Source of the DNA: Eubacteriales bacterium
Lineage (GTDB): Bacteria; Bacillota; Clostridia; Oscillospirales; CAG-272
DNA length: 60,114 bases
NCBI GenBank assembly: GCA_045123255.1
Contig: JBGVIN010000106.1
Location: 1-60,114 of the forward strand
Direction of reading: 5' to 3'
Shown: positions 4,549 to 35,065 of the stretch, piece after piece
How the letters are laid out: every line of letters begins with the position of its first letter
Position numbering within the stretch: position 1 is the first letter of the stretch
Notes under the pieces: model-generated
Told to the model about the DNA's origin: nothing
The model's database searches: none
Seen by the model: the letters and a program-made list of their open reading frames with translations, nothing else
Position numbers and translations under genes: made by a program

Positions 4549-4633
4549 GATTATACACACATAGTGTGATGATATACAATGCTTTGCATTGATGAAATGC
4601 ACGCTATGCGTGGTGATATGCAACCTTCGGTTG
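4549..4633. repeat. Mini-hairpin array arm (linker RTGAWATR), 4 hairpins
   Basis: cacac/ata/gtgtg, caatgc/ttt/gcattg, cacgc/tat/gcgtg, caacc/ttc/ggttg joined by ATGATATA, ATGAAATG, GTGATATG. Confidence 0.85.
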
Positions 4634-4700
4634 ATTTTATTGTCTTTCATTAAAAGACAATAAAAAACGCGCCCGCTATTGCAGGCACGCCTTTATCAAA

Positions 4701-4797
4701 TTTTACGATGCGAAGCATCTTTTAACGCGAGTATCGCTCATAGCTTGGCTAAGCCAATCATCACGATGCGAAGCATCTTATAACGGTGCGAAGCACC
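4701..4797. repeat. Mini-hairpin array arm (7-nt linker), 5 hairpins
   Basis: gatgc/gaa/gcatc, gcga/gta/tcgc, ttggc/taa/gccaa, gatgc/gaa/gcatc, ggtgc/gaa/gcacc joined by TTTTAAC, TCATAGC, TCATCAC, TTATAAC. Confidence 0.85.
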
Positions 4798-4799
4798 TC

Positions 4800-6173
4800 T
4801 TATCTTTCGTTCATTGGAACGTAGGTCTTACGCTCGCATACGTTTTCGTAGCCGGGACGAATGATTTTTCCGTTTAATAGAAGCTCCTCGATACGGTGTG
4901 CGCTCCAGCCCGCAATTCTTGCAATTGCAAAGAGCGGTGTATAAAGCTCGATTGGCAAATCAAGCATACTGTAAACGAAGCCGCTATAGAAGTCAACGTT
5001 TGCTGAAACGCCCTTATATATCTTGCGCTCCTTGGCAATAACCTCAGGCGCGAGCTTCTCAATAAGCGCACAAAGCTTGTATTCCTTTTCAAGTCCCTTT
5101 TCCTTGGAAAGCTTTTCAACCCAGCCCTTGAAAACCTTGGCACGTGGGTCGGAAAGTGCGTAAACGGCGTGACCCATACCGTAGATAAGTCCCTTACCGT
5201 CGAACACCTCTTTACGCAAAATCTTAGTGAGGTATTCTCTTATCTCGTCCTCGTTTGTGTAGTCCTTTAAGTTCTTTTTGATATTATCTATCATTTCAAC
5301 AACCTTGATGTTAGCGCCGCCGTGACGTGGGCCCTTCAAGGAGCCGAGCGATGCCGCAATCGAGGAATACGTATCCGTACCCGACGAGGTAACAACGTGC
5401 GTTGTGAAGCTTGAGTTGTTTCCGCCACCGTGCTCTGCGTGTAAAACGAGTGCAAGGTCGAGTATTTTTGCTTCAAGCGGAGTAAACTTTGCATCCTTAC
5501 GAAGCATATAAAGAAGGTTTTCAGCAATGGAGAGTGAGGATTTCGGACGTCTTATGATAAGACTTTTCTTCTTTTCGTTATATTCATAGCTTCTGTATGC
5601 GTAAACTGCAAGAAGCGGAAATTCCGAAATAAGCTGCAAGCATTGACGAAGCACGTTTGGAATTGAGGTATCGTCCGCCTTGTCGTCGTATGCGTAAAGT
5701 GTCAAAACCGAGCGTGCAAGAATATTCATCATATCCTTACCCGTTGCCTTCATTATAGAGTCACGCACAAAGTTTTTCGGAAGTGAACGGTACTTTGTAA
5801 GAAGCGTGATAAACTCGTCAAGCTCCTGTTTTGTGGGAAGCTGACCGAACAAAAGAAGATATATCGTTTCCTCAAAGCCAAAGCGGTCGTCAGCGAGGAA
5901 GCCGTTTACAAGGTCATTAATGTTAACGCCACGGTAGAAAAGCTCGCCGTCCTTTGGAATTCTTGTTCCGTCCTCTAAAACGTCGAATGAGTTAATCTCT
6001 GAAATTGCGGTAAGACCTGCAACAACGCCCTTACCGTTTACGTCACGAAGTCCGCGCTTAACGTCAAATTTAACGTATTGCTCAGGCTCAATGGTTGTAT
6101 TTGAAATGCACATTTCAACGTATGAAATATGCTGCTGTGTAACCTTGGTTAGTTCTTTTTTTGCGGTTGGCAT
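4800..6173 (-). CDS. gltA: Citrate synthase (citrate/2-methylcitrate synthase family)
   Basis: LHAEHGGGNNS, GPRHGGAN, GMGHAVY..DPRA, NVDFYSG; start re-called at MPTAK after agggagg RBS. Confidence 0.9.
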   Translation of the reverse strand: MPTAKKELTKVTQQHISYVEMCISNTTIEPEQYVKFDVKRGLRDVNGKGVVAGLTAISEINSFDVLEDGTRIPKDGELFYRGVNINDLVNGFLADDRFGFEETIYLLLFGQLPTKQELDEFITLLTKYRSLPKNFVRDSIMKATGKDMMNILARSVLTLYAYDDKADDTSIPNVLRQCLQLISEFPLLAVYAYRSYEYNEKKKSLIIRRPKSSLSIAENLLYMLRKDAKFTPLEAKILDLALVLHAEHGGGNNSSFTTHVVTSSGTDTYSSIAASLGSLKGPRHGGANIKVVEMIDNIKKNLKDYTNEDEIREYLTKILRKEVFDGKGLIYGMGHAVYALSDPRAKVFKGWVEKLSKEKGLEKEYKLCALIEKLAPEVIAKERKIYKGVSANVDFYSGFVYSMLDLPIELYTPLFAIARIAGWSAHRIEELLLNGKIIRPGYENVCERKTYVPMNER

Positions 6174-9326: not shown

Positions 9327-11189
9327 ATGAAGGACGGATATATTAAGGTTAAGGCAGCTTCGCCAAAGCTCGCGGTTGGCGACGTGTCCTTTAACAAGGA
9401 AGAAATTGTAAAGGAAATCAAAAAAGCGATTAGCGAGGACGTTAAAATTCTCGTTTTACCCGAGCTTTCCTTGACGGGAAAGAGTGCAGGCGAACAGGCT
9501 TTTAGCGGCGTTATACTAAACGCCTCGGAGAAAGCGCTTGAAAACATCAAATTTGCGACACAGGGTAGCGATATTTTGATTTTTGTGGGCGCTCCGCTTC
9601 AGTACAAGGGCGCAAATTATTCCTGTGCGGTTGCAATAAAATCGGGTGAAATTTTAGGCGTAGTTCCAAAGATGGGAAAAATGCCTTATTTTAAGGATTT
9701 CATAAAAATTGGCAGCGAAAAATACCCATTCGGCACAGATTTACTCTTTAGCTGCAACGAAATGAAGGATTTAACTATCGGAGTTGTTGTTGGAGATGCA
9801 GTTACCAACCCCTCCCCCAAGGGATTTTTCCTTTGTGAAAACGGTGCAACGGTCATAGTCAATCTTTCGGGAAGCTACGAGCTTGTGTCAAGTGAGGAAA
9901 TTCGTCGCGCTTGCTTCGTTTCAAAGAGCTACGCAACGAAGAGCGCATATATTGTTGCTAATCCAAGCGAGGACGAGTCAACGACGTCAAACGTTTATGC
10001 CGCACATAATTTGATAGTGGAAAACGGAGATATTTTGGCAGAATCCAAGCCGTTTGAGAAAAAAACAGGCGACTGTGTGTCTGAAATTGACGTTTCTTAC
10101 CTTCGAAGCAAGCGCAACGCAATCGACACGCGTACAGAAGCAATAACCGATATTTCATTCTCATTCAAGCTCCAAAAAACAGCTTTAACAAGAAAAATTT
10201 CCAAAACGCCTTTTTTTCCTGAAGGCAAGGAAGAACTGAAAAAGCACTGTGAAAAGATCCTCACAATGCAGTCACGCTCCCTTGCCAAAAGGTTGACTGC
10301 ATCATATTCAAAGGGAATGGTGCTTGGCATTTCAGGCGGACTCGACTCCACTCTTGCCTTGCTTGCCTGCGTAAAATGCGCAGACTATCTTGGATGGGAA
10401 AGAGAAAAAATCACCGCTATCACAATGCCTTGCTTCGGCACAACGAAGCGCACCAAATCAAACGCAACTGAGCTTTGCCGCGCACTTGGCGTTACCTTGC
10501 GCGAAATTGATATTTTTGAAGCGACACGCATCCATTTTAGAGATATTGGCCACGACGAAAGCGACCACAGTGTAGTTTATGAAAACGCACAGGCAAGAGA
10601 ACGCACGCAAATTTTAATGGACGTGGCTAACTCCCTTGGCGCACTCGTTATCGGCACGGGAGACCTTTCCGAGGTTGCACTCGGTTGGTCAACGTACAAC
10701 GGCGACCATATATCAATGTATAACGTAAATTCCGCGCTTCCAAAGACCTTAATTCGACACGTGGTCGAGCATTTTGCAAAAAATCACGGTGGAGAGGTAA
10801 AGGAAATTCTCCTTGACATTCTTGATACTCCCGTTTCCCCCGAGCTTCTCCCTGCAAAGGAAAACGGAGAAATTGAGCAAAAGACAGAGGACATTGTCGG
10901 CCCGTACGAGCTGCACGATTTCTTCATTTATAATTTCGTTGGCAAAAAATTTGCTCCGTCAAAGATTTACCGTCTTGCTCTATACGCATTCAACGGAAAA
11001 TATGACGGCGAAGTAATCTATAAATGGCTCACGGTGTTTATAAAAAGATTTTTCACGCAACAATTCAAGCGCTCCTGCTCACCCGACGGCGTGCGTATCG
11101 GCTCGGTTTCACTTTCTAAGAATGACTTTAATATGGTGAGTGATTTCTCTTACAAGACTTTTCTTGAAGAATTAGATGAAAACAAGTAA
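9327..11189 (+). CDS. nadE: Two-domain NAD+ synthetase (glutaminase domain apparently degenerate)
   Basis: C-terminal SGGLDST, ENAQARER, TGDLSE, PVSPEL, FTQQFKRS; N-terminal nitrilase fold with PEL but no CED motif. Confidence 0.9.
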   Translation: MKDGYIKVKAASPKLAVGDVSFNKEEIVKEIKKAISEDVKILVLPELSLTGKSAGEQAFSGVILNASEKALENIKFATQGSDILIFVGAPLQYKGANYSCAVAIKSGEILGVVPKMGKMPYFKDFIKIGSEKYPFGTDLLFSCNEMKDLTIGVVVGDAVTNPSPKGFFLCENGATVIVNLSGSYELVSSEEIRRACFVSKSYATKSAYIVANPSEDESTTSNVYAAHNLIVENGDILAESKPFEKKTGDCVSEIDVSYLRSKRNAIDTRTEAITDISFSFKLQKTALTRKISKTPFFPEGKEELKKHCEKILTMQSRSLAKRLTASYSKGMVLGISGGLDSTLALLACVKCADYLGWEREKITAITMPCFGTTKRTKSNATELCRALGVTLREIDIFEATRIHFRDIGHDESDHSVVYENAQARERTQILMDVANSLGALVIGTGDLSEVALGWSTYNGDHISMYNVNSALPKTLIRHVVEHFAKNHGGEVKEILLDILDTPVSPELLPAKENGEIEQKTEDIVGPYELHDFFIYNFVGKKFAPSKIYRLALYAFNGKYDGEVIYKWLTVFIKRFFTQQFKRSCSPDGVRIGSVSLSKNDFNMVSDFSYKTFLEELDENK

Positions 11190-14779: not shown

Positions 14780-15192
14780 TTTTTCACTCCTTTTTGCTCT
14801 TTTGAGTAAGAATATTTTTGCAAAAAAGCTCCAATCTGCAAATCATTTTTTGCATAATCTTGCGTGTTTTTCACACCGCATTTTGAAAGCTCTTTTCCAA
14901 AAACCCCATTCTAACCCATTTTACACTATTGTATCACACATTTTCCGAAAAGTAAAGACTATTATTATATAATAATGTAAAAAATTTGCAAATATCAAGT
15001 AAATTTGATTTTTTATGTGCGAGTTGATTTTTTCTTTTTTCGGTGTTATAATTTATGTAGGTGATGAAAATGAGCAACAATCTTCCCAAAAGGAAAAATA
15101 ATAGACTTAGCCAATTCCATTATAGTAGCGGCTATTCATATTTTATAACCGTATGCACGAAGGATAGAGCGCGTATATTATCGGAAATAACC

Positions 15193-15219
15193 GTAGGGAC
15201 AGGCGTCCTCGACTGTCCG
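15193..15219 (+). repeat. GTAG-type REP inside the RAYT ORF (left)
   Basis: GTAG-ggacag-gcgtcctcga-ctgtcc-g; encodes VGTGVLDCP. Confidence 0.85.
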
Positions 15220-15359
15220 CTGATAAAATTAACGTATTTTGGAGAAATTGTAGATAAATATATAAATCAATTGAATGATTTTTATAAGCACATCTCGGTT
15301 GACCAATATGTAATAATGCCAAATCATATTCATATGTTAATAACTGTACGTGCCGAAAA

Positions 15360-15386
15360 CGGACAGTCGGGGACGCCTGTCCCTAC
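15360..15386 (-). repeat. GTAG-type REP inside the RAYT ORF (right, inverted)
   Basis: cggacagtcggggacgcctgtccctac is the reverse complement of 15193-15219 at 26/27; encodes GQSGTPVPT. Confidence 0.85.
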
Positions 15387-15584
15387 AAGTAAAAACTCCG
15401 TTGTTTCCTCGTTTGTTTCAACGCTTAAACGGTTTTCCAACAAAGAATGCGGCTTCAACCCTTGGCAACGCTCGTTTTACGACCACGTTATAAGAAATCG
15501 GCAGGACTATGACGAAACAAGAAAATATATTTACGAAAACCCACAAAATTGGGATAAGGACGAGCTTTTTTCAATCGACAACTA

Positions 15585-15613
15585 AAAATGCACGGCGAAA
15601 CGCCGTGCATTTT
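15585..15613. terminator. Bidirectional terminator between RAYT and alaS
   Basis: aaaatgcacggcg-aaa-cgccgtgcatttt. Confidence 0.85.
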
Positions 15614-20419: not shown

Positions 20420-20633
20420 ATAAATTGTCGTAAAGCGACATGAATTGATGCAAGCATCATAAATTGTGCCTTTGGCACATAAATTGATTGCTCTGCAATC
20501 ATGAAATATTTATTTAATTCATATCATTAGCCGATTCATGCTTTACAGAAGTAATTCATGACCGCAGGTCAATTCATGCCGAAGGCAATTCATGCAACCC
20601 TGTTGCAATTCATGACGCAAAGCGTCAATTCAC
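20420..20633. repeat. Two-armed inverted mini-hairpin array (linker AATTCAT / ATRAATT), 4+5 hairpins
   Basis: Left: gtcgt/aaa/gcgac, gatgc/aa/gcatc, gtgcc/ttt/ggcac, gattgc/tct/gcaatc with ATGAATT/ATAAATT. Right: gctt/tacag/aagt, gacc/gca/ggtc, gcc/gaa/ggc, gcaac/cct/gttgc, gacgc/aaa/gcgtc with AATTCAT. Confidence 0.9.
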
Positions 20634-33556: not shown

Positions 33557-33641
33557 GGGGGATTTCCCGAGCGGCCAAAGGGGGCAGACTGTAAATCTGT
33601 TGTCGACGACTTCGCTGGTCCGAATCCAGCATCCCCCACCA
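33557..33641 (+). tRNA. tRNA-Tyr(GTA), T-loop variant
   Basis: Acceptor gggggat/atccccc, anticodon arm gcaga-ctgtaaa-tctgt, long variable arm, T-loop reads TCCGAAT, encoded CCA. Confidence 0.93.
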
Positions 33642-33675
33642 AAAAATACCGAGAACTCTGTTCTCGGTATTTTTT
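33642..33675 (+). terminator. Terminator of the tRNA operon
   Basis: aaaaataccgagaac-tct-gttctcggtattttt. Confidence 0.88.
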
Positions 33676-33678
33676 TAT

Positions 33679-33845
33679 CCATTGCGAAAGCAATGGCATA
33701 TCATCACGCTTTTGCGTGTATATCATCGCCGAAGGTGTATATCATCAACCGTAGGTTGCATTCTTTCGCAATGATGATATACAATTTCTGCGAAATTGGT
33801 GATATACAAAACTTTGTTTTGATGATATACACGCCTTACGGCGTG
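33679..33845. repeat. Two-armed inverted mini-hairpin array (linker TATATCAT / RTGATATA), 4+3 hairpins
   Basis: Left: ccattgc/gaaa/gcaatgg, cacgc/tttt/gcgtg, cgcc/gaa/ggtg, caacc/gta/ggttg. Right: caatttc/tgc/gaaattg, caaaac/ttt/gttttg, cacgcc/ttac/ggcgtg. Confidence 0.9.
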
Positions 33846-33921
33846 ATTTGGATGCGAGAAAGCGCAAATCTATTGAATAAACTGCTTAGTTGTGATATAA
33901 TACACTTGATGAGGTGATATT

Positions 33922-34269
33922 ATGTCAAAAAATTATTTACTAATATATTCAGAGCAGTTGGCAACTGATATAGAATTGCTTTGCCAAAACATCAATGCTC
34001 CCTCTAATACTCTTTTTCAGATCCGCAAAAGTTCAAGCAGTGTGTATGCGAATATCCGTGAAGCCAATTACGGACAGAGCAAGGCGGATATGCTTTCAAA
34101 ATTCGAAATCGCGCTCAAGGAATGTAGCGAAACCGAAGGCTGGTTACAGTTGTTACATAATGCAAACGGAATAGATGAAGAAACCTATAAAAATCATCGA
34201 AATCTTTGCGGTCGTATAAGACGAATGTTGATTTCGAGTTGTAAGACTTTGAAGGAGAATATGAAATGA
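33922..34269 (+). CDS. Four-helix-bundle protein (TIGR02436 / 23S_rRNA_IVP-like)
   Basis: QIRKSSSSVYANIREA, SKADMLSKFEIALKECSETEGWL family signature. Confidence 0.88.
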   Translation: MSKNYLLIYSEQLATDIELLCQNINAPSNTLFQIRKSSSSVYANIREANYGQSKADMLSKFEIALKECSETEGWLQLLHNANGIDEETYKNHRNLCGRIRRMLISSCKTLKENMK

Positions 34270-34937
34270 AAATTATCTCTTGGAATTGCAATGGTAAATT
34301 TCGAGAAAAATTTCGAGATATTCTTGAATTGGATGCAGACATATATGTTATTCAAGAATGCGAAAACCCCGCAGAAAGTTCTTGTGTTGAGTATGTGGAT
34401 TTTGCAAAAAATCACCTTTGGATTGGCGAACACAAAAGCAAAGGGTTGGGTGTGTTTGCGAGAGAAGGCGTGAGAATGAGGGAGAACGATTGGAAAAAGT
34501 TTTGTTTGAGAAACTTTTTGTCAGTGAACATTAATAACAGTTTTGACTTAGTTGCAGTTTGGGCTTGTCATCCTTATATCGAGGAATATTATATTTATCA
34601 AAGTATTAATATTGTCAACTATAATGAAAATACCATCATAATTGGTGATTTTAACAGCAATGCAATTTGGGATAAAAAGCACCACTCTCGAACACACAGT
34701 GCTATAGTGCAACAACTTAATGATATTGGAATTAGCTCCGCATATCACTACTCTACTAACGAAGTGCAAGGAAGCGAAACGGCACCTACATTCTATTTAT
34801 ATCGCCATTTTGACAAACCATATCACATAGATCATTGTTTTACGGCGGCAAAAAACATACATAGTTATCATGTCTTGAACAGTTTGCATTGGCTTGAAAA
34901 ATCAGACCATATGCCGATATTGTTAAAAACTAAATGA
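34266..34937 (+). CDS. Endonuclease/exonuclease/phosphatase (EEP) family protein
   Basis: ISWNCNG, IQEC, IGDFN, HIDH, SDHMP; ATGA overlap with the four-helix-bundle gene. Confidence 0.9.
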   Translation: MKIISWNCNGKFREKFRDILELDADIYVIQECENPAESSCVEYVDFAKNHLWIGEHKSKGLGVFAREGVRMRENDWKKFCLRNFLSVNINNSFDLVAVWACHPYIEEYYIYQSINIVNYNENTIIIGDFNSNAIWDKKHHSRTHSAIVQQLNDIGISSAYHYSTNEVQGSETAPTFYLYRHFDKPYHIDHCFTAAKNIHSYHVLNSLHWLEKSDHMPILLKTK

Positions 34938-35065
34938 ATGCGTATTGTTCACGCACCTTTTTTGTGGTTTACGGTTGTGCCTTTAGGTGTCAGCCCCTCC
35001 TCTTGATTTATTATCGTATTTGTGATATAATTGTTTCATAAGCCTAAATAAAGAAAGGAAAGGTT

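Follow-up and report, generated by a model that had tools for sequence, protein, structure and literature searches.

Small four-helix-bundle (4HB) proteins of the S23p/Avd family have been met in several settings. Intervening sequences that bear an open reading frame (ORF) are present in 23S rRNA, as in helix 45 of Coxiella burnetii and in Leptospira (PMC4990558), while elsewhere the family has been called Avd-like (PMC10053308), its genes have been located inside cas loci (PMC3936711) and it has been linked with CRISPR adaptation modules (PMC10910872). Weinberg et al. (2010, PMC2864571) catalogued Gut-1, an array of short hairpins on a constant linker, as a non-coding RNA that stands alone; in passages of their main text no partner gene is named for it. 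The closest described relatives of the cassette considered below are the S23p-bearing intervening sequences of 23S rRNA. To our knowledge the PF05635 family has no known catalytic role, and we know of no member for which sequence-specific binding has been demonstrated. No account of a pairing of arrays with such proteins was found in the literature searchable here.

The window (the whole stretch of DNA analysed, 60,114 nucleotides) contains a two-armed array of mini-hairpins directly upstream of a gene for a protein of this family. The parts of this locus, with the tRNA gene behind which they lie, are the following.

33557-33641, + strand: tRNA-Tyr(GTA), the host gene (ARAGORN; Rfam tRNA, 48.7 bits)
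33641-33676, acting in both directions: bidirectional intrinsic terminator, a perfect 16-bp palindrome (33641-33656 / 33660-33675)
33679-33845: two-armed hairpin array
33873-33901, + strand: sigma-70-type promoter, TTGAAT-17-TATAAT with TG extension, between the array and the 4HB gene
33922-34269, + strand: 4HB protein gene, 115 aa (PF05635 / TIGR02436, S23p/Avd family)
34266-34937, + strand: cargo gene of the endonuclease/exonuclease/phosphatase (EEP) family, 223 aa (Pfam PF03372, 26.7 bits)
34939-34990, + strand: terminator-like hairpin, the right border

The terminator palindrome, with an A-run before it and a T-run after it, is the first part of the cassette, and at the other end of the 4HB gene the ATG of the cargo gene overlaps the stop codon (ATGA). 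Homology with the closest relative, G014, ends at 33645 and resumes at 34991; in G014, whose empty site is only partly clean as a comparison in that the tRNA pair is inverted and another gene inserted, the MFS gene is 94% identical, a plain terminator follows tRNA-Tyr and the segment 33646-34990 is missing. These borders define a cassette of 1.35 kb whose left end directly follows the CCA of tRNA-Tyr. A duplicate of the tRNA-Tyr 3' end was not found downstream of the cassette with up to 4 mismatches allowed in 22 nt. Among the neighbours Pfam recognises an EEP-family gene, an MFS transporter and a NERD-domain gene, and no integrase in the flanks of the cassette. ARAGORN and Rfam gave no rRNA in the window, where at gathering level only two tRNAs match. 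Each cassette has one array, upstream of its 4HB gene and none after the cargo, and by word count the window holds no further copy of the word downstream of the cargo gene. With the promoter 3' of the array, transcription of the gene in this clade begins beyond the array, which is thus no part of its leader.

What the initial annotation had described as four hairpins with YATATCAT linkers followed by three with RTGATATA linkers matches the sequence of 33679-33845 base for base, and is set out here element by element.

33679-33696, + strand: hairpin H1, ccattgcgaaagcaatgg, read from the sequence
33697-33758, predicted folding strand +: left arm, three words with hairpins H2, H3 and H4
33697-33704: left-arm word catatcat (CATATCAT)
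33705-33718: left-arm hairpin H2, cacgcttttgcgtg
33719-33726: left-arm word tatatcat (TATATCAT)
33727-33737: left-arm hairpin H3, cgccgaaggtg, with a G.T pair on the + strand
33738-33745: left-arm word tatatcat (TATATCAT)
33746-33758: left-arm hairpin H4, caaccgtaggttg
33759-33773, + strand: centre, cattctttcgcaatg, 15 nt
33774-33845, predicted folding strand -: right arm, three words each followed by a hairpin (H5-H7)
33774-33781: right-arm word atgatata (ATGATATA)
33782-33798: right-arm hairpin H5, caatttctgcgaaattg
33799-33806: right-arm word gtgatata (GTGATATA)
33807-33821: right-arm hairpin H6, caaaactttgttttg
33822-33829: right-arm word atgatata (ATGATATA)
33830-33845: right-arm hairpin H7, cacgccttacggcgtg

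The spacers are palindromes of 11-17 nt, the constant unit measures 8-12 nt, and at the centre the orientation flips, the right-arm words being reverse complements of the left-arm word. Because the stems start with CA and finish with TG, the constant unit can be read as the 12 nt TGTATATCATCA. The centre does, as had been claimed, match the H1 core in reverse complement but for one missing G: 33680-33690 and 33763-33773, the last 11 nt of the centre, form an exact 11-nt inverted repeat with 100% complementarity, so placed that the 5' arm and loop of H1 (33680-33690) can pair with the centre as an alternative to the H1 hairpin. The two distances given earlier also stand, the array (33679) beginning 3 nt past the end of the terminator palindrome (33675), with 76 nt (where about 75 had been reckoned) between the array and the 4HB ATG at 33922.

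The 4HB protein matches PF05635 with 68.1 bits (cut-off 33.8), TIGR02436 with 76.4 bits (cut-off 24) and PDB entry 2rld with E = 1e-15. Its predicted model (pLDDT 89) has four helices and gives TM values of 0.88 to 2rld (BT_0352), 0.83 to 2gsc (Xcc0516) and 0.77 to Avd (4dwl; also 8ub7), sequence identity to the last being ~14%. For all three solved relatives the PDB entry holds five chains, and in 8ub7 Avd is inside the ribonucleoprotein reverse-transcriptase complex of a diversity-generating retroelement (DGR). Neither Pfam nor PADLOC yielded a nuclease or recombinase match for the 115-aa protein, and no PADLOC defence-system model matches it or the EEP protein. Over 73 orthologues dN/dS is 0.03 (median dN 0.044, median dS 1.35), and the gene is by this measure under strong purifying selection; such a ratio with dS saturated marks the product as a working protein and no decaying passenger. 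Recent horizontal spread as the cause of the 87-95% amino-acid identity of relatives from different families was rejected on the same saturation of synonymous sites.

How general is the arrangement? A protein search gave 465 relatives, and the best 79 loci, all from different species, are those with 87-95% amino-acid identity. In 63 of these best 79 of 465 the order is 3' end of a stable RNA, terminator, H1, left arm, centre, right arm, promoter and 4HB gene. In the same best 79 the cassette comes after one or other of at least 18 tRNA species or tmRNA, and near-identical terminator alleles recur after up to 7 different stable RNAs, from which it follows that the terminator travels with the array and cassette, not with the tRNA. 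An extended -10 is present at 50 of 74 related loci, and the full promoter pattern at 46 of the 74. In most of the best 79 of 465 loci the 4HB stop and the start codon of the following ORF share bases (ATGA or GTGA), and what fills this slot is highly variable: 42 unrelated gene clusters in 72 loci drawn from the best 79 of 465, among them lipoproteins, small membrane proteins, GNAT acetyltransferases, a nucleotidyltransferase, MazG, NUDIX, a WapI-like immunity protein and DUF4275. The EEP-family cargo of 34266-34937 is found at none of the best 79. At 4 loci the remnant of a tRNA 3' end is found beyond the 4HB gene, at a distance of 666-900 nt.

At one locus (L010:3900-4230) a second cassette follows the cargo of the first, again as terminator, two-armed array, promoter and another 4HB-like ORF. 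Its array, with GTGAAAT words (ATTTCAC/GTGAAAT type), is a true Gut-1 match at 64.6 bits. Cassettes can thus stack, and Gut-1 would on this evidence be the array of one 4HB clade. The array of 33679-33845 itself was rejected as a Gut-1 RNA: a permissive Rfam search gave RF01706 scores of 18.4 bits (33693-33768, - strand) and 16.5 bits (33772-33854, + strand), far below the gathering threshold of 50, with assorted miRNA and snoRNA models rejected likewise.

Enrichment of such arrays beside TIGR02436-family genes, for which the initial annotation had proposed a test against control regions, is pronounced. In this genome all four TIGR02436 genes have a two-armed array directly upstream. In 28 relatives, with an array defined as at least 2 forward and at least 2 reverse copies of one 6-mer within 300 nt upstream, arrays precede 48 of 59 4HB genes (81%) as against 39 of 302 controls (13%), the controls being other genes at the same loci; with at least 3 + 3 copies the figures become 29/59 and 6/302. 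The word-count statistic was adopted after a first hairpin-chain detector had missed about half of the arrays visible by eye; arrays missed by the stricter hairpin detector are mostly recognisable by eye. Within the window it also holds that only the 33679-33845 array adjoins a TIGR02436 gene, the array at 20426-20630 preceding an RNHCP-domain gene. Across a phylum-wide sample, period-7 tandem repeats stand ahead of 4HB genes: the 95th percentile of control windows is exceeded at 14 of 27 loci, as against 10 of 241 controls. Some 4HB genes of other Bacillota with GGTTAGA-type heptamers upstream are inside 23S rRNA genes (L156, L162, L163, L175), and one with such heptamers is inside an RNase P RNA gene (L166), which extends the intervening-sequence habit to another stable RNA.

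It is not adjacency alone that is seen; word and protein vary together. The four 4HB arrays of this genome have the words YATATCAT, YATATCAC and TYATCAC/GTTATGA, with GTGATATR/YATATCAC at the 4HB gene of contig C40, which follows a methyltransferase-like gene, and TYATCAC/GTTATGA at that of C42. The 4HB protein tree follows the word, with sister clades one base apart (ACTTCAC, CTTCATT, CATCATT, ACATCAC, ATTTCAC), and several cassettes with different words can be present in one genome, as in G013. The pattern YATATCAY-N9-20-YATATCAY occurs 166 times in this genome; among relatives with a 4HB gene 19 of 28 have at least 5 hits of the word pair, and 13 of 13 without one are at background (0-3 hits). 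This co-variation makes it probable that the array is bound by the adjacent 4HB protein. A paralogous cassette behind tRNA-Cys (C47:19424-19988) is alike in array architecture and promoter, and is probably decaying, its 4HB gene being interrupted by TAA in frame and a cargo gene being absent.

The explanation preferred here, to which we would give a probability of roughly 0.58, is that array and 4HB protein are a cognate pair, the protein reading the words displayed between the hairpins and the resulting nucleoprotein complex serving the cassette. The array would be the cis-acting front half of the cassette at 33646-34990, itself composed of bidirectional terminator, two-armed array, sigma-70 promoter, 4HB gene and translationally coupled variable cargo. 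Its mini-hairpins would act as compact spacers that display the 8-12-nt word (TGTATATCATCA) three times in each orientation, to which a presumably pentameric, Avd-like 4HB protein (five chains per entry being what its solved relatives hold) would bind, array and protein forming a specific complex. The word may be recognised single-stranded or as duplex. As to what the complex is for, control of the adjacent promoter and/or marking of the cassette for copying behind stable-RNA genes seem most plausible.

Several considerations weigh against the pairing. Co-inheritance of linked DNA could explain the co-variation of word and protein with no binding at all. In this assembly, which is 93% complete, the array types CAATTCATG and TGAAAT have no cognate 4HB gene, and six relatives have many YATATCAY arrays and no detected 4HB gene of the YATATCAY clade. 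At C40 and C42 the array abuts the ribosome-binding site, whereas in the clade of the gene at 33922 a promoter intervenes between array and gene, and with spacing that differs so among clades one mechanism may not fit all. Finally, arms that fold on opposite strands are explained simply neither by a single transcript nor by plain duplex binding.

That the array is no accident of composition is clear. The exact word is present 5 times in the 60,114-nt window against 1.0 expected, 4 of the 5 within the array, and in none of 100 shuffles are 5 copies reached; the array folds as RNA at -70.9 kcal/mol versus -38.7 +/- 4.0 for shuffles (z = -8.1), and as DNA with z = -8.7. These word counts and fold energies exclude a chance origin. 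Hairpins are formed by 116 of 122 distinct spacers in the best 79 of 465 related loci, where 96.7% of stem positions are Watson-Crick, and of the non-canonical stem pairs, read on the YATATCAY strand in the genome and the best 79 of 465 loci, 36 are G.T versus 4 A.C. This bias implies that one strand is selected to fold, which for the array of 33679-33845 is + in the left arm and - in the right. In other word clades non-canonical stem pairs are few, and the bias is accordingly a result for the YATATCAY arrays. At 38 of 64 loci the 11 nt of H1 and centre stay complementary, by way of 4-5 alleles that co-vary.

Folding is also where the best surviving alternative, itself unlikely, makes its case. 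On this alternative no protein reads the words; the arms would pair through them in a read-through transcript, as in the processing stem of an intervening sequence, and RNase III would cut there and free the tRNA from the cassette mRNA. The predicted RNA fold does pair all three word pairs (z = -8.1), the position of the cassette is always after a stable-RNA gene, 4HB genes of the phylum-wide sample occur within genes for 23S rRNA and RNase P RNA, and the same protein family is encoded by 23S rRNA intervening sequences (PMC4990558). However, with a perfect terminator before the array and a promoter after it little RNA is expected across both arms, and these are both upstream of the ORF instead of flanking it. 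The excess of G.T over A.C has the hairpins of the two arms folding on opposite strands, impossible for one RNA, and a word that is specific to the clade and uniform within the array is left unexplained.

Arrays of this kind are not confined to 4HB genes. The 2.0-Mb genome has ~40 arrays with a YATATCAT-type word, and 141 hairpin/linker arrays, whatever their word, are picked up by a generic detector, versus 15 in the shuffled genome. Two-armed architecture is shared by ten arrays, 9 of them directly after a tRNA gene and terminator (tRNA-Tyr, Met, Leu twice, Cys, Pro, Arg and Gln, the Arg module being in tandem duplicate); the tenth, on C123, is at a contig end with a T-run and ATCCA lead-in as in the others. 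The tandem duplicate (contig C6:14466-14933) comprises the terminator and two-armed array behind tRNA-Arg with a ~270-bp period, and a T-arm-like remnant (gggttcaaatc) follows each copy. An insertion signature is seen on contig C9, where 26 nt of the tRNA-Gln 3' end recur exactly, 11 nt past a solo array. The two-armed array at 20426-20630 of the window, with words CATRAATTG and then CAATTCATG, is between mnmE and genes for RNHCP-domain and radical-SAM proteins and adjoins no 4HB gene; a 4HB clade with the word CAATTCA is present in relatives (L088, L112, L121) and absent from this assembly with its ~13 such arrays. Also in the window are a one-armed ATGATATA-type array directly after a terminator (4555-4633) and, after it, a second array (4690-4800) with TYATMACG words, the type of the C42 4HB gene. 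For the one-armed arrays the strand that folds is locally the richer in C in 24 of 30 cases (binomial p = 0.0014, the loci being non-independent). A simple 3'-UTR RNA role was not adopted for them, as they have no orientation preference (20 sense versus 22 antisense downstream placements).

Could these dispersed copies mean that the array is one copy of a dispersed REP/BIME-like palindrome that owes its mobility to a RAYT/IS200-type Y1 (HUH) transposase, with a 4HB neighbour only because both settle in permissive tRNA flanks? We regard this as quite improbable for the cassette. It accords with the ~40 same-word arrays being scattered in intergenic DNA, mostly downstream of genes, and with strand-specific folding like that of single-stranded-DNA transposase substrates. 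The genome has 6 PF01797 (Y1 transposase) matches, which include three paralogous RAYT-like proteins of 167-178 aa with weak matches and HIH and Y motifs, encoded in the window at 15061-15585 and at C9:~180-476 and C2:~9750-9974, the C9 copy having GTAGGGGCGATTCACGAATCGCCC REP elements on both sides. There are ~106 GTAGGGG sites, and of 35 one-armed YATATCAY runs 11 have an inverted GTAGGG(G)-type REP in fixed orientation no more than 70 nt from their start, where genome-wide there is about one REP site per 10 kb; the order is REP palindrome, CCCCTAC, ~5 nt, AATCA and array (e.g. C2:5480-5990, C10:17180-17330). Yet at two-armed arrays no REP is adjacent (0 of 14 arms), the units have no REP-defining GTAG head, the word co-varies with the 4HB clade, and there are 4HB genes away from tRNAs that have their own arrays, C40 after the methyltransferase-like gene and L084 after gyrB-/recF-like gene ends.

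For the one-armed copies next to REPs the position is different. Their layout suggests that composites of REP and array may be moved by RAYT, and a REP/RAYT vehicle may have spread these copies. REP-adjacent one-armed arrays together with RAYT-like genes point to a vehicle for them other than the 4HB protein, and leave unproven the suggestion of the initial annotation that the pair at 33679-34269 is an ‘autonomous’ version, if this is taken to mean that the protein mobilises the arrays. That suggestion finds no support in Pfam or PADLOC, where the protein has no nuclease or recombinase match, nor in the genome, which is without a reverse transcriptase, and is disfavoured too by the array types that have no cognate 4HB gene and by the REPs at 11 of 35 one-armed runs.

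The weakest candidate, and a very improbable one, is that the array is a recombination site (attC-like or att arm-type) for a trans-acting recombinase that inserts the cassette and exchanges its cargo, the 4HB protein being at most an architectural helper: for all that the tRNA/tmRNA 3' ends where the cassette is placed are targets classically used by tyrosine integrases, that tRNA 3'-end sequence recurs 11 nt past the solo array on C9 (26 nt, tRNA-Gln) and 666-900 nt downstream of the 4HB gene at 4 loci, that the cargo slot is hypervariable and that the array, like integron attC, is structured yet variable in sequence, no recombinase was recognised in the 42 cargo clusters (translations inspected; 10 Pfam-scanned) or adjoining the cassette here, an att core matched to one tRNA leaves unexplained the identical terminator and array modules behind 7 stable RNAs, and the junction is the mature CCA end, not the gene interior.

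If array and 4HB protein are indeed a cognate pair, two orphans would explain each other: the S23p/Avd-like 4HB proteins outside retroelements, and hairpin/linker repeats of Gut-1 type. The pairing predicts that each 4HB clade binds its own word, and the presence of several word/protein pairs in one genome provides built-in controls for specificity. The expression slot is itself unusual, a constant leader gene, subject to very strong purifying selection, whose stop overlaps the starts of dozens of unrelated cargo genes, and the cassette bears on how uncultured gut Clostridia acquire and express accessory genes. There is a practical side for annotation as well: hairpin arrays break assemblies, and repeat finders may mistake them for small CRISPR arrays. 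A far broader proposal can be put forward tentatively, and in its full form it is rather doubtful. PF05635 4HB proteins, orphans of thousands of genomes that have been known in two guises only, Avd and the ORF of rRNA intervening sequences, might be sequence-specific readers of words, and with their arrays might constitute a previously unrecognised kind of cassette which settles at the mature 3' ends of stable RNAs without a recombinase of its own; its promoter and start/stop-overlapped slot for exchanged accessory genes would make it an integron-like display platform, and Gut-1 would be one of its arrays.

Against systems already described the cassette can be placed as follows. CRISPR has direct repeats of ~23-50 nt, unique non-palindromic spacers and cas genes nearby; here there are a constant unit of 8-12 nt, palindromic spacers of 11-17 nt and an orientation flip, and no cas family has a Pfam match among the neighbouring ORFs, so a CRISPR array was rejected. 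An integron has an integrase gene beside attI and cassettes that each end in attC, and was rejected as the locus has no flanking integrase and no array after the cargo. In iteron arrays of the parC/ParR type, short repeats are clustered ahead of the promoter from which a small oligomeric protein is expressed, and this protein binds them cooperatively. The cassette has a like cluster before the promoter of its small, presumably oligomeric and putatively binding protein, but its spacers are selected hairpins with strand-specific G.T pairs, its arms are two and inverted, it has no partition ATPase and its site is chromosomal, behind tRNA genes. Like the array, REP/BIME elements (REPINs) are palindromes scattered between genes which fold on a single strand and come in arrays, and this genome has RAYT-like genes. 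The array units, by contrast, begin with CA and end with TG, with no GTAG head and a constant word outside the stem; their stems are variable and their linker constant, where in REPs the reverse holds; and the two-armed cassette has no flanking REP, its words tracking the 4HB clade.

With DGRs there is the likeness of protein, a four-helix-bundle fold of TM 0.77 to Avd, whose entries hold five chains and which in 8ub7 is part of a ribonucleoprotein complex. Unlike a DGR, the cassette has no template/variable repeat pair and no adjacent reverse transcriptase; no PF00078 match was found in the whole genome, and a retroelement reading was rejected on that ground. Gut-1, as the main text of PMC2864571 describes it, is like the array in its short hairpins on a constant linker and its origin in gut metagenomes, and differs from the array of 33679-33845 in its word. 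The likeness is greatest to the intervening sequences of 23S rRNA: an S23p / PF05635 protein, a small insert at a stable-RNA gene, two mutually complementary arms, and an apparently selfish element without a recombinase of its own. There are differences, however. The cassette is after the CCA end of a tRNA instead of inside an rRNA helix (25 or 45), and both of its arms are upstream of the ORF (33922) where bracketing inverted repeats would be in an intervening sequence. Those arms are strings of word and mini-hairpin and not a plain inverted repeat, and the cassette has its own terminator, its own promoter and a second, variable gene.
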